The notes beneath the pieces are model-generated. The model had not been told where the DNA came from. It was given only the letters and a program-made list of their open reading frames with translations, and searched no databases. A DNA stretch of 64,000 nt from Acidobacteriota bacterium (GTDB lineage Bacteria; Acidobacteriota; Vicinamibacteria; Vicinamibacterales; UBA2999). Position numbers and translations under genes: made by a program. The stretch spans positions 6,554 through 70,553 of the forward strand of contig JAUSDY010000171.1 of assembly GCA_030650395.1 (NCBI GenBank), read 5' to 3'. The number at the start of each line of letters is the position of its first letter. Position 1 is the first letter of the stretch. Below are positions 7,649 through 58,009 of this stretch, in pieces.

Positions 7649-7650
7649 AC

Positions 7651-7737
7651 TTGAAACTTAAAACTGAACTTAAAACTGAACTTCAAACTGAACTTCAAAC
7701 TGAAACTTTCAACTTACAACTTTCAACTTTCAACTTG
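7651..7737. repeat. one-armed tandem-word element (AAACTGAACTTN 12-mers then CTTTCAA heptamers)
   Basis: 4 x aaactgaactt(a/c) followed by ctttcaa units. It equals the right arm of the full palindrome at 46166-46318. It covers the acnA-queG spacer and the last acnA codons. Confidence 0.85.
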
Positions 7738-10482
7738 CTTCACCAACTGTCTCAGCACGTACGGCAGGATGCCGCCGTGTGAGAACGCGGTGAGCTCTTC
7801 CGGCGTGTCGATGCGGGCGAGCGCGGTGAAGGTCTTGACCGAGCCGTCCTCCGCCGTCGCCATCACCGCGATCTCGGCGCGCGCCTTGAGCGACGCACCC
7901 GCGCCGGCAAACGCAAACACCTCGCGGCCGGTGAGGCCGAGCGACGCGGCGCCCTGGCCGTCCTTGAACTGCAGCGGCAGCACGCCCATGTTGACGAGGT
8001 TGCTGCGGTGAATGCGCTCGTAGCTTTCCGCCATCACCACCTTCACGCCGAGCAGCATCGTGCCCTTGGCGGCCCAGTCGCGCGACGAGCCGGAGCCGTA
8101 CTCCTTGCCGGCGATCACCACGAGCGGCACTCCGGCCGACTGATAGCTCATGGCCGCGTCATAGATGGGCATCACGTCGCCGCCCGGAAGATATGCCGTC
8201 ACGCCGCCTTCCACGCCGGGGACCATCTGGTTCTTGATCCGCGTGTTGGCAAAGGTGCCGCGCATCATCACTTCGTGGTTGCCGCGCCGGGCGCCGTAGG
8301 AATTGAAGTCCTTCGGCTCCACGCCGTGCTCGATCAGGTACTTGCCGGCGGGGCTGGCGGCCTTGATGCCGCCGGCCGGCGAGATGTGATCGGTCGTGAT
8401 GCTGTCGCCGAGCAGCGCCAGCGCGCGCGCGCCGCGAATATCCGAGGCCGGCGCCGGCGTCATCGACAGGTTCTCGAGGAACGGCGGTTTGCGAATGTAG
8501 GTCGAGGTGTTGTCCCACGCAAAGCGATCGCCGACAGGCACCGGCAGCGTCTGCCACCGCACGTCGCCGTCGAACACGCTCGCATACTGCTGGCGATACG
8601 CCTCGGACGTGACGGCATGGAGCATCGCCGCCTGGATCTCTTTTTCCGTCGGCCACACATCCTTGAGATACACGGGCTTGCCTTCGATGCCGATGCCGAG
8701 CGGCTCGGTGGTGATGTCGATCGTCATCGATCCCGCCAGCGCATAGGCGACGACCAGCGGCGGTGACGCGAGGTAATTGGCGCGCACTTCCTGCTGGATG
8801 CGGCCTTCGAAGTTGCGGTTACCGCTCAGCACCGATGCCACTACCAGGCCCCGCTCCGCGATTTCAGCCGAGACCTCCTCGGGCAGCGGGCCGCTGTTGC
8901 CGATGCAGGTGGTGCACCCGTAGCCCACCAGATTGAAGCCGATCTGATCGAGATACGTGTCGAGGCCGGCCTTCTTCAAGTAATCGGTCACGACCTTCGA
9001 CCCCGGCGCCAGGCTGGTCTTGACCCACGGCTTGCGCGTCAGCCCGAGCTCGACCGCCTTCTTGGCGACAAGACCCGCGCCGATCATCACGCTCGGATTC
9101 GACGTGTTGGTGCAGCTGGTGATCGCGGCGATCACGACCGAACCATGTTCGAGCTGCGTCGCGGTGGCAACGGCTCCCTGCCCTGACCCTTCGACAGGCT
9201 CAGGGTCACCCCGAGCGGAGCCGAGGGGTGAGCGAGCTTCGGGGTTTTCCCCGAAGCGAGTCGAAGGCACGCCCTTCTTCAAGTCCGCCAGCGCGCCGGC
9301 GAACGATGCCTTGGCCTTGGTCAACGGGACGCGGTCCTGCGGGCGACGCGGGCCCGCGAGACTGGGCACCACGGTTCCGAGATCGAGCTCCACCGATTCG
9401 GTATACACCGCGTCGGGCGACTGGGCCGTCCTGAAGAGGCCCTGCGCCTTCGCGTAGCCTTCCACCAGCGCGATCTGCCGCTCGTCGCGCCCGGTCAGGC
9501 GCAGGTATTCGAGCGTCATGTCGTCGATCGGGAACATCGCGACGGTGGCGCCATACTCGGGGCACATGTTGCCGAGCGTCACGCGGTCGGCAATCGTGAG
9601 ATGCGCGAGGCCAGGCCCGTAGAACTCGACGAACTTTCCCACCACGCCGTGCTTGCGAAGCGCTTCGGTGATCGTCAGCACGAGGTCGGTGGCGGTGGCC
9701 CCTTCGGGCAGCTTACCCGTCAGGCGATAGCCCAGCACCAGAGGAATCAGCATCGAGCTCGGCTGGCCCAGCATCGCCGCTTCGGCCTCGATGCCACCCA
9801 CGCCCCATCCAACGACCCCAAGGCCATTGACCATCGTGGTGTGCGAGTCGGTGCCGAACACCGTGTCGGGATAGGCGACCGCCGTGCCGTTGACTTCGTC
9901 GCGACAGACGACGCGCGCCAGGTATTCGATGTTGACCTGGTGCACGATGCCGGTCTCGGGCGGCACGACGCGAAAGTTGCGGAACCCGGTCTGGCCCCAG
10001 CGCAGGAACACGTAGCGCTCCCGATTGCGGTGGTACTCGAGGCTCGCGTTCAGCTCGAGCGCGTTGCTGGTGCCGAAATGATCGACCTGCACCGAGTGAT
10101 CGATCACGAGCTCGACCGGCTGCAGGGGGTTGACCTTGTGCGGATCGCCGCCGAGGGCGACGATGCCGTCACGCATGGCGGCCAGATCGACCACACAAGG
10201 CACGCCGGTGAAATCCTGCAGCAGGACCCGGGCCGGCATGAACGACATTTCCTTTTCGCCGATCGTCTTCGGATCCCACGACGCCAGCGCCGTGATGTCG
10301 GCGGCTTTCACAAAGCCGTTGTCTTCACGCCGCAACAGGTTCTCGAGCAGGATCTTGAGCGAATACGGCAGCCGCGCCACGCGGGGAAACGCCTGTTCGA
10401 GTGCGGGCAGGCTGTAGATGCTGACGGTGTCGGTGCCGATGGATAACGACGTGCGGGTCTTGAAGCTATCGAGGCTGGACAT
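7723..10482 (-). CDS. acnA: aconitate hydratase A
   Basis: [13 protein letters not shown] and [12 protein letters not shown] Fe-S ligand motifs, full-length aconitase/IRP architecture. ATG 10482 is preceded by AGGAG; the upstream ORF extension to 10566 overlaps the neighbouring gene. Confidence 0.95.
9188..9267. repeat. compound palindromic element inside acnA coding sequence
   Basis: ccttcgacaggctcaggg + tcaccccgagc-gga-gccgaggggtga + gcgagc + ttcgggg-tttt-ccccgaa + gcgagtcgaagg. Translated in frame as ...[23 protein letters not shown]... Confidence 0.8.
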
Positions 10483-21800: not shown

Positions 21801-22790
21801 TCATTGTATCTGGGTCCTCGATAAGACTCTGACCGCCGACCACCCGCCCAGCCCGACGTTCGCGTAGCGATAATCGTTGAGCCAGATGCCCGACGGTTCG
21901 ACGGCGGCAAATGGCAAGCGTGACCAGGCGAGGTAGGCGCGCGCGAGTGGTGTTTGCAACGCGGGTTGAACGGCGGGGTCGTCGAGGTGCGTGTCGATGC
22001 CAAATCCGGATGGTCGAAAGTGCGGCAGCGGTTCGAACCACACGAGGCCTTTTTCGTAGCGGCCGCCGGCGTCGATCACCACTTCCCGTTTGAACGGGTT
22101 CACCAGCACAGGCGTGACCATGAACCGCGTCGACGCGGGACGCCCCGCGCGCACGAGGCCACCTTGCACCTCAGCGCGCGCCAGCAGGTTCGATCCGAGC
22201 ATCACGGCCATGTAGACCGTCGCGATTGCGACGCCGATTCGCGCCGGTTGCGCCGCGTCGGCGTCGCCGCGTTTCTGGCGTCGTGAGGCCAGCCACCATC
22301 CGAAGCCGAGCGCGAGGTACAGCCAGGGATCGACGATGTACAGGGCATCGCCGTAGAACCAGCGGTCCGAAAACGGCATCAACAGCCGCACGCCGTAGCT
22401 GTTGAGGAAGTCCATGAAGACGTGGGCGAGCACGCCGATATACGCCAGCAGCGCAAGCTCGCCAAACTTCGCAGGGGACAGCCCCTGCCCTGAGCGAGCG
22501 ACGTCGCGCGTTTCGCGCGACGTCGAGAGTCGAAGGGTCCGTTGAAGAACAAGGCGGTCGTAGGCAAGCATCACTCCGGTCAACACCAGCGGCAGCACCG
22601 CTTGCGCCAGCACGCCGTGCGTCCAGCCGCGGCGGAACGACATCACCAGTGTGTTGGTCGCGAAGACCGCGACGTCGATGTCGGGCAGGTTGTTGGCGAT
22701 GACGAGCGTGCTCATGCCGAGCGTCGTGCGCCTGGCCAGGCCGGCTTTGCCGAGCGCCGCGCCCATCAGCGAGTGACAGACGTTATCCAC
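21801..22790 (-). CDS. YdjM-like membrane-bound metal-dependent hydrolase (DUF457)
   Basis: MDNVCHSLMGAALGKAGL N-terminus, multiple TM segments, conserved His/Asp (NLPDIDV, WTHG, HVFMDFLN). GTG start. Confidence 0.7.
   Translation of the reverse strand: MDNVCHSLMGAALGKAGLARRTTLGMSTLVIANNLPDIDVAVFATNTLVMSFRRGWTHGVLAQAVLPLVLTGVMLAYDRLVLQRTLRLSTSRETRDVARSGQGLSPAKFGELALLAYIGVLAHVFMDFLNSYGVRLLMPFSDRWFYGDALYIVDPWLYLALGFGWWLASRRQKRGDADAAQPARIGVAIATVYMAVMLGSNLLARAEVQGGLVRAGRPASTRFMVTPVLVNPFKREVVIDAGGRYEKGLVWFEPLPHFRPSGFGIDTHLDDPAVQPALQTPLARAYLAWSRLPFAAVEPSGIWLNDYRYANVGLGGWSAVRVLSRTQIQ
22474..22537. repeat. flank-conserved/variable-stem element inside the YdjM-like CDS
   Basis: ccctgagcgagc + perfect 11-bp hairpin gacgtcgcgcg-ttt-cgcgcgacgtc + gagagtcgaaggg. 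Translated in frame as ...LRLSTSRETRDVARSGQGLSP... Confidence 0.85.
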
Positions 22791-28073: not shown

Positions 28074-30293
28074 ATGCGCGCCCTGCCCGCCCTTGTCTTC
28101 GTCATCGCGTTTGTGGTCCGGCTTGTCCACATCTGGCAGATCAAGCCGTCGCCGTTTTTTGACGTCCTGCTCGGCGACGCGGGCGGCTACGACGAGTGGG
28201 CGCGGCGGCTGGCGGGCGGCGACTGGATCGGCAGCGACGTGTTCTACCAGGCCCCGCTCTATCCATACTTTCTCGGCGTTCTCTATAAGCTGTTCGGCCA
28301 CGATCTGCTGATCGTCCGCATCTGCCAGGCGGCGATCGGGTCGGCGTCGTGCGCGCTGCTCGCGCTCGCGGGCGGGCGGCTCTTCTCGCCGCGGGTCGGG
28401 CTCATTGCCGGCCTCGCGCTTGCGCTCTACGCGCCGGCGGTGTTCTTCGACGCGCTGCTCCAGAAGTCGGTGCTCGACATGTTCTTCGTCTGCCTCAGCA
28501 TCTGGCTGGTCTCGCGAATTCTTGCTGGCTCGTCGACGCGGGCGTCGTGGATCGCGCTCGGGCTCGCAATGGGTGCCCTCGCGCTCACACGGGAAAACGC
28601 ACTCAGCTTCATTGCGGTGATTGTTGTCTTCGCCGTCGTTCAGAAGGGTTCAGAAGGGTTCAGAGGGGTTCTGAAAGGTTCTGACGGGTTCGGAAAGGTT
28701 CGGAAAGGTTCGAACCCTTCAGAACCCTTCAGAACCCTTCAGAACCATTCAGAACCATTCAGAACCTTTCAGAACCTCGGATGGTTTGTGGTCGGCTTGG
28801 CCGTGGTGTTGCTACCGGTAGCGATCAGGAACTATTCGGTAGGTGGCGGGCTGTATCTAACGACGTCGCAGTTCGGATCGAACTTCTACATCGGCAACCA
28901 TGCCGGAGCCGATGGCACATACGCGTCGATCCGGTTTGGCCGCGGCGCGCCGGAGTTCGAGCGGCAGGATGCGACGGAGGTGGCCGAGCAGGCCGTCGGC
29001 CGCAGCCTCACGCCGTCGGAGGTCTCGGCCTACTGGACCGATCGCGCTCTCCTTTTCATCACGTCACAGCCTGCCGAGTGGATCGCGCTGACCGGACGCA
29101 AGATCAGGCTGCTCGTCAATCGCTCGGAGATGCTCGACACCGAAAGCCAGGAGAGTTACGCCGAGTGGTCGTGGCCGCTGCGGATCGGCGGTTGGATCGG
29201 GCATTTCGGCGTGCTGGTGCCGCTGGCGCTGCTTGGAGTGATGGTGACGTGGCCGGAACGGCGCCGCCTCTGGATCCTCTACGCGATGGCGATCGCCTAC
29301 GCGGCCAGCGTGGTGATGTTCTATGTGTTCGCGCGCTATCGCTATCCGCTGGTGCCATTCCTGCTGTTGTTTGCGGCAGCCGGTGTGGCGTTGCCCTTCG
29401 ACTCAACATTTCGCGAGTACCTCGCGAAATGTTTCGCTCAGGGTTCGCGTCGATGGCAACTGGCGGCAATTTCGATCGCTGTTACCATTTTTGCGAATTG
29501 GCCTGTGTTGTCATCGACGCTCATGATGGCCATCACCGAGAACAATCTCGGCACGGCGTTGCAGGACGCCAAACGCTACGACGAGGCCGTCGTCCATCAC
29601 GAGCGCGCGGTCGCCTTGCAGCCGGATTACGCGCCGGCGTACAACAACCTCGGGGCCGCGCTACGCGCCGCCGGCCGTCTCGACGAAGCGGTCGCGCAGT
29701 ATCAGAAGGCGCTCGCGCTCAAGCCCGACTTCGGCAACGCGAGTTACAACCTCGCCAACGCCCTGCTCGAGCGCGGCCAGGCCGGCGCGTCGGTCGACGA
29801 GTTTCGGAAGGCGATTCAATTGACGCCCGATTCCGTGCAGGCGCACAACAACCTCGGAATCGCGCTGGCGGCCAAAGGCGATGCGGCGGGCGCGATGGCC
29901 GAGTTCCGCGCCGCGATCGCCCTCGACGGCACCTCGGTGCAGGCCCATCGCAATCTCGGCAACATGCTGGTCGACCGCGGCGAGCGGGCCGAGGGCATGG
30001 CTCACCTCGAGCGCGCGGTGCAGGTCGCGCCGGGCGAAGCCGACGCGCTCTTCGACATCGGCAGCATCCTGCTGCAGGAGCAGGATTTCAAGGGCGCCGC
30101 CGGGCGATTTCAGGCGGCGCTGCAAATCAAGCCCGACTCGCCCGAGACGTTGAACAACCTCGGGATCGCGTTCGCCAATCAGGGCAAGATCGCCGACGCC
30201 CTCACCTACTTCGAGCGCGCACTCAGCTTGCGGCCCAACTTCAACGACGCTCGCGTGAATCGTGATCAGGCTCGCGCCGTCCTCAAGAAATAA
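28074..30293 (+). CDS. membrane glycosyltransferase (GT39/PMT-ArnT-like) fused to C-terminal TPR repeats
   Basis: Multi-TM N-terminal half with a typical start (VVRLVHIWQIKPSPFFDVLLGDAGGYDEWA). The C-terminal ~280 aa are consecutive TPR units (YNNLGAALRAAGRLDEAVAQYQKALALKPDF...). Confidence 0.8.
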   Translation: MRALPALVFVIAFVVRLVHIWQIKPSPFFDVLLGDAGGYDEWARRLAGGDWIGSDVFYQAPLYPYFLGVLYKLFGHDLLIVRICQAAIGSASCALLALAGGRLFSPRVGLIAGLALALYAPAVFFDALLQKSVLDMFFVCLSIWLVSRILAGSSTRASWIALGLAMGALALTRENALSFIAVIVVFAVVQKGSEGFRGVLKGSDGFGKVRKGSNPSEPFRTLQNHSEPFRTFQNLGWFVVGLAVVLLPVAIRNYSVGGGLYLTTSQFGSNFYIGNHAGADGTYASIRFGRGAPEFERQDATEVAEQAVGRSLTPSEVSAYWTDRALLFITSQPAEWIALTGRKIRLLVNRSEMLDTESQESYAEWSWPLRIGGWIGHFGVLVPLALLGVMVTWPERRRLWILYAMAIAYAASVVMFYVFARYRYPLVPFLLLFAAAGVALPFDSTFREYLAKCFAQGSRRWQLAAISIAVTIFANWPVLSSTLMMAITENNLGTALQDAKRYDEAVVHHERAVALQPDYAPAYNNLGAALRAAGRLDEAVAQYQKALALKPDFGNASYNLANALLERGQAGASVDEFRKAIQLTPDSVQAHNNLGIALAAKGDAAGAMAEFRAAIALDGTSVQAHRNLGNMLVDRGERAEGMAHLERAVQVAPGEADALFDIGSILLQEQDFKGAAGRFQAALQIKPDSPETLNNLGIAFANQGKIADALTYFERALSLRPNFNDARVNRDQARAVLKK
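28638..28777. repeat. 140-nt composite palindrome of 10-nt words inside the GT39/TPR coding sequence
   Basis: 7 x gttc(a/t/g)ga(a/g/c)(a/g)g, centre ggttcgaacc (28708-17), then 7 x c(c/a/t)ttcagaac. Translated as KGSEGFRGVLKGSDGFGKVRKGSNPSEPFRTLQNHSEPFRTFQN between two TM segments. Confidence 0.9.
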
Positions 30294-37243: not shown

Positions 37244-38581
37244 TTAGCGCGGAAAGCGTCCGAGCGCGACGAGCAATTCCAGGCGCGCTTGCCGCACCGC
37301 ATCCTCGCCCTGCGCGACGATGGTCTCGAGATCGCGCACCGAGCGTTGCGCATCGATCACCTCGATGTTGGTCGTGGACCCGGCATCGAAGGCGATGATC
37401 GTGATCTTCAAGACTTCGTTGGCGTGCTGTGCCGCCTGCCGCGCGCGCACCAGCGCGCGCTCCTGGGCCTCGACCGCCGCGCGCGCGACGCGCACTTCCG
37501 ACCGCGCCCGGATCTGCACCTGCTCCAGTGAGAACGACGACGCCTGCAAGCTCGCCTCGCGCTGGCGCCGCACCGCGCGGCGCGAGCCGGCGTCGTAGAG
37601 CGGCTGCGACACCTGGAACGACAGGCTCCAGCTGCGCGACGGCTGAAAGAGGCCCGACGGCGCGAGCAGCTGCGGGCCGAAGGTGACGGCCGCCGCCGGC
37701 CACCAGTCTTTCGAGCTGTCGTGAACGACCCGATCGCTCGCCTCGCGTTCGGCGGTGAACAGCTGCACGTCGGTTCGACCCGGCATCCATTCAGCCTCGG
37801 CAGTTTCAACCGGCACCTCGAAGGCCGGCTCGCCATTCACATCGACCGGCGCATTCGCGGCCAGCAGAACACCGAGCGCCTCTTGCGCGCGCCTGACGTT
37901 GAGGCGAAAGATTTCGACCAGCGCTTCGTTGCTCGCGAGGATCTGCGCCGACCGCAGCTCGTTCAACCGGCTGCCGACGCCGCCTTCACGCCGCCTGGTG
38001 TTGTAGTCGAGTTGTCCGCGCGCGGTCTGGATCGCGTTCACGCTCACCTCGACCTGCCGCTTCTGCGCGATCACGGCAAGATAGGCTGACGCGGTCGCGA
38101 CCGCGATTTGGCGGCGCGTCTCTGTGGTCGACAGGCGCGCAATCTCGACCTGGTCGAGCGCCTGCGCGCGTGCGGCCCACTGTGCGGCCGCGAGGATGGG
38201 CGCGGTGGCCGAGAGTCCGAACAGGGTCTGGTTCTGCGGCTGCACCGTTTCGCCGCCGAACGAGCGGCCGCTGTCGAGCGTGGTGTTGGTGATGTTGGCG
38301 CCGAGGCGCGGCATCACCGCCGCGCGGACCTGCTGCAGGATGGCTTCGGAGCGCAGGATGTTGGTCGAGGCAATCGCGATCGTCGGGTTCTTCTCCAACG
38401 CGCGCGCGATGGCCTCGTCGAACGTCACGGTTTCCACGGGTACCCCGAGGGCTTGAGGGCTCGAGGGCTTGAGCCTGCCCTGAGCGAAGGTGACTCCGCT
38501 TGCGGAGTCGGCTGAGTCGAAGGGGGCTTGAGAGCCCTGCGCCAACGCAGGCGTGGCGAACGACACCGCCAGCAACAACAT
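37244..38581 (-). CDS. alternative model: separately initiated TolC/OprM-like outer-membrane efflux protein
   Basis: In-frame ATG 38581 (GTG 38584) opens MLLLAVSFATPALAQG..., followed by two OMF repeat halves. This model is nested in the long ORF. Confidence 0.4.
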   Translation of the reverse strand: MLLLAVSFATPALAQGSQAPFDSADSASGVTFAQGRLKPSSPQALGVPVETVTFDEAIARALEKNPTIAIASTNILRSEAILQQVRAAVMPRLGANITNTTLDSGRSFGGETVQPQNQTLFGLSATAPILAAAQWAARAQALDQVEIARLSTTETRRQIAVATASAYLAVIAQKRQVEVSVNAIQTARGQLDYNTRRREGGVGSRLNELRSAQILASNEALVEIFRLNVRRAQEALGVLLAANAPVDVNGEPAFEVPVETAEAEWMPGRTDVQLFTAEREASDRVVHDSSKDWWPAAAVTFGPQLLAPSGLFQPSRSWSLSFQVSQPLYDAGSRRAVRRQREASLQASSFSLEQVQIRARSEVRVARAAVEAQERALVRARQAAQHANEVLKITIIAFDAGSTTNIEVIDAQRSVRDLETIVAQGEDAVRQARLELLVALGRFPR

Positions 38582-44232: not shown

Positions 44233-44292
44233 TCCACCTTCGCCAAGGCTTCCACCTCCGCCAAGGCTACGGCGGACAAGACGGCGGACGAG
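44233..44292. repeat. tandem-word spacer element between gatC and gatA
   Basis: 2 x 18-mer tccacct(t/c)cgccaaggct followed by 2 x 12-mer acggcggac(a/g)ag. tccgcc / ggcgga are complementary. Confidence 0.8.
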
Positions 44293-45742: not shown

Positions 45743-46186
45743 TGGCGATTGTCCTTCCGCTCTGCGCCGCATACGCGCTGTGGTGCCTGTTCACGATGCC
45801 GGCAGGACCGATCACCACGCCAGACTCGGTGCACTATCTCAATGCCTCGCCGATCGTTCCGCTCGGCTACCCGCTCTTCCTGAACCTCGTCGGCGCGCGC
45901 GGCGCGATGTTCGCGCAGCCGATGCTGTTTGCGGCGGCGCTCGCCGTGCTCGGGCGCGAAACCATTCGCCTTGTGGACGGTCGATCGCCTGCGGCACCCC
46001 GACACCGCTGCCCCGCTCACGCAGTTCATCGCGAGCAATCGGCCGCTGCCGTTCGAAAAGGAGGCGTTCCGCGTCGATCCCGACGTCACGATCGCCTTCA
46101 CCGCCGACGGCTTATGGCCGGCGATCACCACGGCAGCGCTGTATGGTGTCTGGGCGGTTTGGGTTAAGTTGAAAGTTGAAAGTTGA
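45742..46186 (+). pseudogene. frameshifted small membrane-protein gene (possible remnant)
   Basis: ATG 45742 (TGATG overlap with gatA) opens a high-GC3 hydrophobic frame up to about 45955. High GC3 then continues in the +1 frame (KPFALWTVDRL...WAVWVKLKVES, stop 46184-86). The original frame becomes Arg-rich and low-GC3. Confidence 0.4.
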
Positions 46187-46318
46187 AAGTTGAGAGTTTC
46201 AGTTGCCAGTTCAGTTGGAAGTGTGAAGTCTTACGTTCGCGTGGGCGAGTCGAACTTTGAACTCAAAACTGAACTTGAAACTGAAACTTCCAACTTTCAA
46301 CTTTCAACTTTCAACTTG
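46166..46318. repeat. 153-nt tandem-word composite palindrome (GTTGAAA heptamers + AGTTCAGTT words)
   Basis: gttgaaa x3-4 + gagtttcagttgccagttcagttggaagt opposes aactgaacttgaaactgaaacttcc + aactttc x3-4, with a ~40-nt central loop. Confidence 0.9.
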
Positions 46319-46323
46319 ACCGG

Positions 46324-56502: not shown

Positions 56503-57557
56503 CGCTGGCGCTGCTTCCTGAAGTACTCGACCTGCCAGGTGAAGACGTTCTGATTGTGCTCCTCGAGCGTCGTCGCAAACGCGTGCGTGCCGTCGTTCTT
56601 GCTGACGAAATACACGTAATCAACCGGCGCCGGGCGCACCGCGGCCTGTAACGACGCCCGACCGGGTGAGGCGATCGGTCCGGGCGGCAAGCCCGGATAA
56701 CGATAGGTGTTGTAGGGCGAATCGAGCTGCAGGTCCTCGCGCCTCAGGTTGCCGTTGTATCTCCCGGCCTTCTGCAACGCGTAGATCACCGTCGGGTCCG
56801 CCTGCATCGCCATACCCATCGTCATGCGGTTGCGATACACCGCCGCGACGATGGGACGCTCGTCGGGCGTGCCCGTTTCTTTCTCGACCAGCGCCGCGAG
56901 CGTGACCACTTGACGCACCGTCAGGCCGTCGGCGGCTGCGGCAGCGCGCAGTTCGTCGTCGAACGCCTTCTTGAACCCCGTCACCATCGATCCCACGACG
57001 TCACGGGCCGACGTGCCGCGCGGCAAGGCGTAGGTCTCGGGAAATAAATAGCCTTCGAGATCGCGCGCGGCCGGGTCGAGATCGCGGATCGCAGCCGGAT
57101 CGGACGCCGCCTGGACGAATTCGGCTGCCGAGCCAAATCCTTTTTGCTCGAAGACGGCGGCCATCTCGGCAATCGTGAGGCCTTCACGAAACGTCAGCAA
57201 GCGCCGGTAGATGTCGCCACGCCTGATCTTGTCAATGACCTCGAGCGCGTCGATGGGCTTGTCATAACGATACTCACCAGCCTTGAGCTCGCGGGCCCGC
57301 CCGCTGATCAAGACCGCGGCGCGAAACGTCCACGGATCGCGGACGATGCCGGCGTCGACCAGGCGCTGGCCGATGCCGACCGGGCCGGTGCCGTTTGGAA
57401 TGTCGACGAACTGCTCGGCGCCCGTGTATCCCCGATACGGCTCGTTCACCCGAGAGTAGATCCACCAGCCCGCCGCCCCGAACACCACGAGCGCCAACAC
57501 CAGCAGCAGCGCCAGTCGCTTCAACCATCGCACCCTTCGACTCGGATGGCTCGTCAT
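56499..57557 (-). CDS. mltG: endolytic murein transglycosylase MltG (YceG-like)
   Basis: N-terminal TM anchor and YceG domain (LDSPYNTYRYPGLPPGPIASPG). ATG 57557 overlaps the ruvX stop. Confidence 0.85.
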   Translation of the reverse strand: MTSHPSRRVRWLKRLALLLVLALVVFGAAGWWIYSRVNEPYRGYTGAEQFVDIPNGTGPVGIGQRLVDAGIVRDPWTFRAAVLISGRARELKAGEYRYDKPIDALEVIDKIRRGDIYRRLLTFREGLTIAEMAAVFEQKGFGSAAEFVQAASDPAAIRDLDPAARDLEGYLFPETYALPRGTSARDVVGSMVTGFKKAFDDELRAAAAADGLTVRQVVTLAALVEKETGTPDERPIVAAVYRNRMTMGMAMQADPTVIYALQKAGRYNGNLRREDLQLDSPYNTYRYPGLPPGPIASPGRASLQAAVRPAPVDYVYFVSKNDGTHAFATTLEEHNQNVFTWQVEYFRKQRQR

Positions 57558-58009
57558 GCCGAGCCATCCTCGCTCAGGGCGGGCTTTCGCCCGTCCAGAT
57601 AGTCCTGCAGGATGACGGCCGCGGCGGCGGCGTCGAGCTTCTTCTTCCGCTTGCGCCAGTCGGGCTCGCGCCTCGCGAGGCGTGCCTCGGCCTCGTGGCT
57701 CGACAATCGTTCGTCCTGCAGAATCACGGGCACCGGCACCTGCGCTTCCAGCGCGCGCGCGAAAGTTTCCACAATGGGGGTTTGATCGTTCGGCGTGCCG
57801 TCGAGGCGTCGCGGCCAGCCCACCACCACCGCCTCGAGCCCCTCGTCTGCCTTGGCGAGCGCCGCAATCTCCGCCACTACGAGGCGCATCGTTTCCGCGT
57901 CGGAGGGCGGCTTCTGCAGCAGCCGCCACGGCGAGGCCAGCGTGGCGGTGGCGTCGCTCAGCGCCAGGCCGATGCGCCGCGCGCCGTAATCGATCCCAAG
58001 CACTCGCAC
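57554..58009 (-). CDS. ruvX: Holliday-junction resolvase-like / pre-16S rRNA nuclease YqgF
   Basis: VLGIDYGARRIGLALSD signature. GTG 58009 gives 151 aa; the ORF extends to 58111. Confidence 0.8.
   Translation of the reverse strand: MRVLGIDYGARRIGLALSDATATLASPWRLLQKPPSDAETMRLVVAEIAALAKADEGLEAVVVGWPRRLDGTPNDQTPIVETFARALEAQVPVPVILQDERLSSHEAEARLARREPDWRKRKKKLDAAAAAVILQDYLDGRKPALSEDGSA

Follow-up and report, generated by a model that had tools for sequence, protein, structure and literature searches.

A nested, in-frame tract of palindromic micro-repeats in the aconitase gene of an Acidobacteriota bacterium

Rickettsia palindromic elements (RPEs) are dispersed palindromic sequences of about 100-150 bp that form ten Rickettsia families, each with a conserved peptide (PMC10969869), and lie in frame in many housekeeping genes (Ogata et al. 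2000, as summarised in PMC10969869 and PMC3733652). Intragenic repetitive extragenic palindromes (REPs), stem-loops tagged with GTAG or CGTC that lie within open reading frames (ORFs), have also been described (Di Nocera, De Gregorio and Rocco 2013, PMC3733652), and REP doublets that form hairpins (REPINs) are mobilised by REP-associated tyrosine transposases (RAYTs) and can insert into one another (Bertels and Rainey 2011, PMC3116915). Here we analyse a repeat tract that is translated in frame within the aconitase gene acnA of a soil bacterium of the phylum Acidobacteriota, order Vicinamibacterales. The gene lies in a stretch of 64,000 nucleotides (the window; contig JAUSDY010000171.1 of assembly GCA_030650395.1, positions 6,554 to 70,553), and coordinates below are window positions unless a contig is named. 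The tract is made wholly of members of one dispersed family of GC-rich palindromic micro-repeats. We put at about 80% the probability that it is passenger selfish DNA of this family, which entered acnA in at least two steps and was tolerated there.

The family works like RPEs but is not one. As with RPEs, its members are dispersed palindromes without coding capacity of their own, which stand in frame in unrelated genes and add surface peptides compatible with the fold of the host protein. Unlike RPEs, the units are 18-55 nt long and GC-rich, conserve no peptide, being read in five frames, nest in one another and occur in Acidobacteriota. A preliminary description of the window had compared the tract to RPEs; the comparison thus holds for behaviour, namely in-frame insertion in many genes, and fails for size, for a conserved peptide in one frame and for taxon.

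Like intragenic REPs, the family has stem-loops of 20-40 nt that at times lie wholly inside ORFs of known proteins, occurs as single units or dimers and has hit the same site in related species (recB in Xanthomonas in the case of REPs); as for the CGTC repeats, there is no dedicated transposase. Unlike the tagged REPs, its units have no GTAG or CGTC at the stem base, their ends being CCTTCGAC and GCTCAGGG(CA), and the intragenic share is about 40% rather than a minority. The nested 45-nt piece described below resembles REPINs in being an inverted, hairpin-forming doublet with a short spacer. REPINs, however, are extragenic and adjoin a RAYT gene, whereas about 40% of the present copies are inside coding-like ORFs, family units flank no Y1 transposase gene and copy number does not track Y1 genes. 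Of the marks of miniature inverted-repeat transposable elements, namely terminal inverted repeats of 15-30 bp and duplication of the target site, the family ends show pairing over only 4 bp, and the nested piece has 3-nt TCA flanks that may be part of its structure. The nearest analogue in size and nesting is the set SDR1-8 of heterocystous cyanobacteria, mobile repeats of about 21-27 nt that reportedly (Elhai and colleagues, 2008) insert into each other and into genes; the 21-nt unit read here as PSTGSGQ is of the same size, but the sequences and the phylum are different. SDRs are not known to have an enzyme of their own. Literature searches found no paper that describes the present family.

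The composite tract in acnA

The host gene (positions 7723 to 10482, minus strand, with an ATG start at 10482) encodes 919 aa of the AcnA/IRP1 type, with Pfam matches to Aconitase and Aconitase_C and an E value of 7e-302 against human IRP1 (2b3x). It has the four-domain aconitase fold with the three cysteine ligands of the 4Fe-4S cluster; these iron-sulphur (Fe-S) cysteines, C457, C523 and C526, the catalytic residues and other invariant positions were intact in an alignment with relatives.

The repeat-derived tract occupies positions 9267 to 9179 of the minus strand, 89 nt (87 + 2) that are read in frame through codons 406-435 as 30 residues. On the coding strand it runs GTG / CCTTCGAC TCGC / TTCGGGG AAAA CCCCGAA / GCTCGC TCA / CCCCTCGGCTCCGCTCGGGG TGA CCCTGAGCCTGTCGAAGGG TCA / GGGCA GGGA, and it consists of three units: one outer, hairpin-bearing unit and, nested within it, an inverted doublet of two short units. 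The outer unit opens with its left end, CCTTCGAC plus TCGC (9256-9267), for which the family consensus is CCTTCGACTCG... in 69 copies of this genome, continues with the hairpin GCTTCGGGG-AAAA-CCCCGAAGC (9236-9257) and enters its right end with GCTCGCTCA (9229-9237), where it is cut after TCA. The rest of the right end, GGGCA (9179-9183), continues the sequence as GCTCA/GGGCA, as it does in short-unit alleles and in a congener, genome G020, in which GCTCGCTCA/GGGCA runs unbroken. The intervening 45 nt (9184-9228), exactly the 15 codons 419-433, are the doublet, composed of a variant unit CCCCTCGGCTCCGCTCGGGG (9209-9228), the triplet TGA, an inverted short unit CCCTGAGCCTGTCGAAGGG (9187-9205) and a closing TCA (9184-9186) that repeats the TCA at 9229-9231. 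The doublet is thus flanked by TCA on both sides, but the same triplet pairs with the central TGA and so may belong to the structure.

The preliminary description had presented positions 9188-9267 as an 80-nt compound palindromic element, encoding about 27 residues just upstream of a conserved block. The sequence it quoted is exact, both of its hairpins are real, and a repeat of a dispersed family is indeed translated in frame just upstream of the Fe-S ligand block IAAITSCTN. The repeat-derived part is longer than was stated, and what looked like one element with terminal inverted repeats is a composite of outer unit and nested doublet: the 8-nt ends CCTTCGAC and GTCGAAGG are perfect reverse complements, and the look of a terminal inverted repeat comes from the outer unit's left end and, facing it, the inverted short unit of the doublet.

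Folded as single-stranded DNA, the full tract forms three consecutive hairpins (z = -6.5), and equally good folds were obtained in 0 of 200 shuffles. The TTCGGGG-AAAA-CCCCGAA hairpin has a 9-bp stem once the flanking GC pairs are counted, and the TCACCCC...GGGGTGA hairpin has 7 bp plus 3 inner pairs; the nested doublet taken alone forms two adjacent hairpins (z = -4.1). An RNA fold of 121 nt around the tract gave z = -3.4. The hairpin centre of the outer unit has no second copy in this genome.

An AlphaFold2 model of the window's AcnA, built from a diverse 66-sequence alignment (an alignment of 25 close relatives gave a predicted local distance difference test score, pLDDT, of only 47.6), had a mean pLDDT of 93.6 and a predicted template modelling (TM) score of 0.92, and superposed on the closed IRP1 structure 2b3x with TM scores of 0.91/0.94. 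pLDDT fell below 50 solely at residues 411-413 and 417-440, in a coil between helix 387-401 and strand 448-454, the strand that runs to the cysteine of IAAITSCTN. In this model the insert is a disordered, solvent-facing surface loop. Across diverse AcnA/IRP representatives the segment after GPxRPxD varies from 23 to 68 residues without any conservation, the window's 68 standing at the top of the range, and the repeat loop falls in the most length-variable segment of these proteins. This lack of conservation, together with the absence of the segment from the two nearest relatives (below), goes against the outcome that would have refuted the insert of the preliminary description, a segment conserved in distant AcnA proteins. 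HMMER splits many AcnA matches at residue ~442.

The same description had called the protein an essential enzyme of the tricarboxylic acid cycle. Its identity as an aconitase was borne out, but not the word essential, as the genome has other genes of the aconitase superfamily, one LeuC-like and one a fused aconitase-family gene of 680 aa. The 680-aa ORF (C1:21022-22047), in which the swivel, small-subunit-like domain is N-terminal and precedes domains 1-3, bears on whether acnA is the sole aconitase of the genome.

A repeat of another kind lies at the end of the gene. An AT-rich array of words of ~6-7 nt (AAGTTGAAAGTTGAAAGTTG...) at 7649-7737 covers the last four acnA codons and the stop codon (read QVES, then stop) and occupies the entire spacer up to the GTG start of the next, QueG-like gene. 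The AcnA consensus of the relatives ends ...LRQLVK, so that the array gives the window's AcnA its C-terminus and stop codon. A second AT-rich array, 92% identical to the first, lies at 46162-46321 as part of a 68-nt inverted repeat.

Alleles at the acnA loop in relatives

We examined acnA in 24 congeners and in genomes sampled from the order's other families, and surveyed the loop in 119 AcnA proteins from public (metagenome) data that share its flanks. The two nearest relatives, G005 (a sister species with 94% AcnA identity) and G001, have no repeat at the loop; in both, KVPASGGGT takes the place of the window's 31 residues. G020 has, at the codon where the window's tract lies, GTC CCTTCGACTCGC TCCGGAG AAAA CTCCGGA GCTCGCTCAGGGCA, which is the window's outer unit without the nested 45 nt. 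The outer unit is uninterrupted (GCTCGCTCAGGGCA) in two further alleles, P0004 and P0015, which are of the G020 type with decayed stems, whereas the window has 45 nt between TCA and GGG. At the level of sequence, the window and G020 thus make a clean before/after pair for the doublet.

The junction GTN/CCTTCGACTCGC, which has no AAG codon, is common to the window, G020, P0004, P0015 and P0002. A bare short unit stands in frame at the site in nine congeners as AAG CCTTCGACAGGCTCAGGGCA, read KPSTGSGQ; in P0007 a doublet lies nested at the centre of a short unit, and P0002 has two units at the loop. Among the 119 proteins, the loop segment had a baseline length of 39 aa in 66 and was 46 aa long in 8, the 7 additional residues being PSTGSGQ, a motif found at several offsets. 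In a maximum-likelihood tree of AcnA computed with the loop masked, the window grouped with G005 and G001, and G020 fell in the other main clade with G012; on this tree at least six changes between presence and absence of the repeat are required. The locus turns over among closely related species, and the loop is a hot spot for these units.

The window's genome is a draft metagenome-assembled genome (MAG) of 180 contigs, the exact nested allele was found nowhere else, and a repeat-induced chimera of assembly could in principle look like this. We regard such an artefact as extremely improbable, because the tract keeps the frame, with a nested piece of exactly 15 codons, its flanks are continuous with the gene on both sides, and independent assemblies show either the outer unit at the same codon (G020, P0004 and P0015) or other nested forms (P0007).

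The stem of G020, GCTCCGGAG-AAAA-CTCCGGAGC, differs from that of the window at two base pairs (C-G to T-A and A-T to G-C); both changes are compensatory and keep the 9-bp stem perfect. Apo-aconitase binds its own transcript in other bacteria. The paired changes, and the fact that the whole tract folds far better than its shuffles, could mean that the hairpins are a functional cis-acting structure in acnA mRNA or DNA (a translational pause, a determinant of RNA stability or an apo-aconitase site), the protein loop being a by-product. This explanation is improbable in our view, as the two nearest relatives and most congeners lack the tract, the same family occurs in about 60 unrelated genes and in intergenic DNA, the stems have decayed in P0004 and P0015, and Rfam gave no match to the tract (best E = 0.96, far under the gathering score). 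Furthermore, template-switch correction of quasi-palindromes, an established mutational mechanism, can keep the arms paired without selection.

The AcnA of G020 (P0003) carries the NCBI source label 'Cyanobacteria bacterium', while G020 belongs to the same genus as the window's genome and 'Acidobacteria bacterium RIFCSPLOWO2_12_FULL_67_14b' (P0042, which is G001); the G020 MAG is probably mislabelled.

Forms of the family and its copies in other genes

The family is bracketed by CCTTCGAC and GCTCAGGG, of which 158 exact end-pairs no more than 75 nt apart occur in this genome. The canonical hairpin form, CCTTCGACTC-N12-45-CGCTCAGGG, has 69 copies here, and its reversed control pattern had 0 matches in every genome searched, which shows that the family does not arise by chance. 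The simplest form is the short unit, CCTTCGAC-N2-3-GCTCAGGG, of 18-19 nt. In the second form the same ends are placed around a hairpin with a loop of 3-4 nt; the hairpin centres are distinct in 79 of 81 cases and have a median fold z of -3.8. The third, the inverted doublet, follows the pattern XYZ-CCC(C/T)TCGAC-NNN-GCTCGGG(G/A)-Z'Y'X'-CCCTGAGC-NNN-GTCGAAGGG-XYZ, in which the triplets on either flank change together with the spacer triplet that the two units share (TCA/TGA, CCA/TGG, TCG/CGA and CCG/CGG). Short units measure 18-21 nt, hairpin-bearing units 27-55 nt and doublets 45 nt. What is conserved is the unpaired ends or loop (TCGAC...GCTC), closed by CCCT/AGGG, the only 4 bp over which the family ends pair, round a freely variable hairpin.

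The doublet junction pattern occurs in 7 copies here, 35 in G013 and 12 in G020, with 0 matches to the control. Units also land in one another: 3 of the 8 doublets of this genome lie inside another family unit, although the family makes up 0.11% of the genome (binomial P = 8e-8). A doublet at C14:34660 is nearly identical to that in acnA and interrupts another short unit at the corresponding point. These data bear on the idea that the nested piece was made locally, when replication switched templates or folded back and copied an adjacent short unit in inverted orientation. In its favour, the short unit that other congeners have at this site is, in reverse complement, exactly CCCTGAGCCTGTCGAAGGG; the doublet pairs two units in opposite orientation, 3 nt apart and bordered by 3-nt repeats; and the spacer triplet covaries with the flanking ones among copies. 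We nevertheless assign local generation a low probability, since near-identical doublets are dispersed here and in congeners with the same differences between their halves (CCCC...GGGG versus CCCT...AGGG), the copy at C14:34660 shares the point of insertion in another unit, and the window's outer unit is of the TCGC type and hence is not the template of an inverted unit of the AGG type.

Element lengths, counted from CCTTCGAC to GCTCAGG, exceed by far the one-in-three expectation for multiples of 3: they are such multiples in 35 of 41 coding-like copies and in 51 of all 74 others, and they are so in 21 of the 37 copies with neither flank coding-looking (p = 0.004). Adaptation to ORFs through avoidance of stop codons was considered and rejected: elements have 4.5 open frames on average against 4.2 in composition-matched shuffles, so that freedom from stops is mostly a matter of GC content, and stop-codon avoidance does not account for lengths in multiples of 3.

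About 40% of the copies (64 of 158) lie in coding-like ORFs with coding-type G+C content at third codon positions (GC3) on both sides, a heuristic classing that takes in a few chance matches, such as an NHL-repeat gene. Five of the six frames are used by in-frame copies, the sixth containing TGA, and yield the peptides PST.., FDS..AQG, LRL..SGQ, ALSE..RVEG and PEPVEG, none of them conserved across the family. Besides AcnA, the hosts confirmed by Pfam are MetH, with the insert in the linker that joins the homocysteine domain to the pterin domain; PriA, whose zinc ribbon is split by it; penicillin amidase; and YdjM.

The variety of peptides speaks to a further explanation, in which the additional 30 residues of AcnA are an adaptive flexible loop selected for an interaction or for AcnA regulation. 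In its favour, the tract leaves the frame intact, the loop is at the protein surface beside the strand of the Fe-S ligand, and extended loops recur here in related lineages. Yet the family is read in five frames in different genes, so no peptide is conserved; the peptide at this site differs among the window, G020, P0007 and P0002; the loop is predicted to be disordered; and the sister species does without it. Selection for the loop itself is therefore very improbable.

Four further copies lie in the window and confirm that the flank words of the acnA tract, which the preliminary description had noted in a thrS leader, a YdjM-like gene and an outer-membrane-factor gene, recur. The first (22488-22536, minus strand) is in frame in a gene for a YdjM-family membrane protein (Pfam YdjM over residues 10-213, insert at residues 93-109), and the second (29395-29443, plus strand) in frame in a large membrane/TPR protein gene. 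The third (38478-38523, minus strand) is read as APFDSADSASGVTFAQGRL just past the apparent signal peptide of a putative outer-membrane-factor-like ORF, and the fourth (57534-57579, plus strand), putatively the one in the thrS leader, matches the pattern.

A second hot spot is in PriA, at the beta-turn that separates CPNC from CHYC in the zinc ribbon (C123:91412-92059, locus L120; loci L121-L134 in relatives). The element there is common to this genome (G000) and its sister G005, with hairpins whose differences include one compensatory pair. Ten other relatives, seven of them congeners and three from other families, have a short baseline turn (HTQGREWRGRCHYC or similar), and five congeners (G015, G012, G001, G013 and G014) have other inserts. 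Element positions thus differ among congeners at both the acnA and the PriA sites, which contradicts ancient fixed features there. By its sequence, the G015 insert looks to be derived from a different GC-rich repeat family (SLGEGG-type peptide). The window also holds a 40-nt inverted pair, 85% complementary (1250-1289 and 44248-44287), of another GC-rich repeat, CCGCCGACTTGTCCGCCGGAGCTTCAGCGAAGGTGGAAGC, which resembles GCCTCGGCGAAGGAGGAAGC of G015 and, on similarity only, looks like the kind that fills the PriA turn in that genome.

Spread of the family and its entry into acnA

Within the genus (25 congeners), canonical copies range from 0 (G014, G017 and G019) to 94 (G005); genomes sampled from other families of the order have almost none. 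Among 201 sampled Acidobacteriota genomes, 29 have the short unit CCTTCGAC-N2-3-GCTCAGGG, in a patchy distribution. A second lineage rich in short units lies far from the genus, in family f44, with 38, 17 and 10 copies in G214, G194 and G124, respectively. The patchy distribution across the phylum suggests horizontal spread or independent bursts.

Y1/RAYT was considered as the mobilising enzyme and rejected, as family units do not flank the Y1 gene and counts are not correlated: the Spearman coefficient between Y1 gene counts and element counts in the 25 congeners was 0.02 (p = 0.91), 2-5 Y1 genes are present in genomes that lack the elements, and G007, which lacks Y1 genes, has 10 elements. 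The genome has a single Y1_Tnp (IS200/RAYT-like) gene of about 300 aa (C1:102804-103706). It stands between perfect 38-nt inverted repeats, GATTGGGGTCAGGTCAAGAAAATCACAGTTTGGGATGA (C1:102613-103745, L031), which are unrelated to the family. GATTGGGGTCAGGTCAAGAAAATCACAGTTTGGGATGA contains the motif GGGGWSAS, a trait of the 'TIRtrons' of Acidobacteria (Di Nocera et al. 2013, PMC3733652).

On the reading that we favour, passenger DNA that was tolerated, the tract would have been built as follows. First, to judge from the alleles of relatives, a hairpin unit CCTTCGAC-TCGC-[hairpin]-GCTCGC-TCAGGGCA would have come to occupy the start of the loop after LKKGV. The before/after comparison then shows that the 45-nt inverted doublet inserted in the right end of this unit, between TCA and GGG, leaving TCA on either side and adding exactly 15 codons. 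Tolerance would be favoured by the site, a predicted disordered, solvent-facing connector from helix 387-401 to strand 448-454 in the most length-variable part of AcnA/IRP proteins, by pieces that are multiples of 3 nt and by GC-rich units that are free of stops in five of six frames. The dispersed, near-identical doublets point to movement by copying rather than local generation. New units appear to land preferentially in resident ones, a habit that would produce both the nesting and the repeated hits on the acnA loop. As copies diverge, selection on the hairpin or template-switch correction of quasi-palindromes may keep the arms paired.

Several observations weigh against this account. Compared with G005, the window allele is a replacement of ~27 nt by ~93 nt and not a clean insertion. 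The outer unit is common to the window and G020 although the two belong to different AcnA clades. Sliding-window identity shows the window's flanks to be G005-like right up to the loop, with no clear tract that would mark import of the loop by recombination from a G020-like donor; the shared unit may have been lost by G005 and G001, been transferred in a very short conversion tract or arrived independently. Pairing was not always kept, as the decayed stems of P0004 and P0015 show, and nearly all hairpin centres differ, for which simple copy-and-paste from a few masters fails to account. The exact nested allele was found in no other assembly: when metagenome contigs were scanned for exact patterns, neither the nested junction nor the one between acnA and the element had a match (0 for both). 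Finally, no mobilising enzyme was found, the sole Y1 gene of the genome having unrelated flanking repeats and Y1 counts being uncorrelated with element counts across the genus.

A bolder possibility, tentative and in our estimate rather unlikely, is that the family is an undescribed kind of micro-mobile DNA: a stem-loop of 18-21 nt (a GC stem of 4-7 bp and the loop TCGAC-N2-3-GCTC) that homes into its own kind and has spread patchily through Acidobacteriota without a Y1 transposase, a host or structure-specific enzyme cutting and rejoining at the loop. If so, the hairpin-bearing, doublet and nested forms would all arise from such homing with two mutually complementary loops, lengths would be quantised in threes outside genes too, and the AcnA loop would be a natural record of successive homing events.

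On the reading of a tolerated passenger, an enzyme of central metabolism carries 30 repeat-derived, predicted disordered residues beside the strand of its Fe-S ligand, with all conserved residues kept. Within one genus the acnA locus offers an unusually complete series of alleles: empty, short unit, hairpin unit, hairpin unit with nested doublet, and short unit with nested doublet. This series is useful for understanding how tiny palindromic repeats move, land in each other and keep their arms paired. Such tracts also inflate and vary protein loops in metagenome-assembled genomes, where they can break homology searches, as in the HMMER splits of AcnA, and yield spurious peptide motifs such as PSTGSGQ and ALSE..RVEG.

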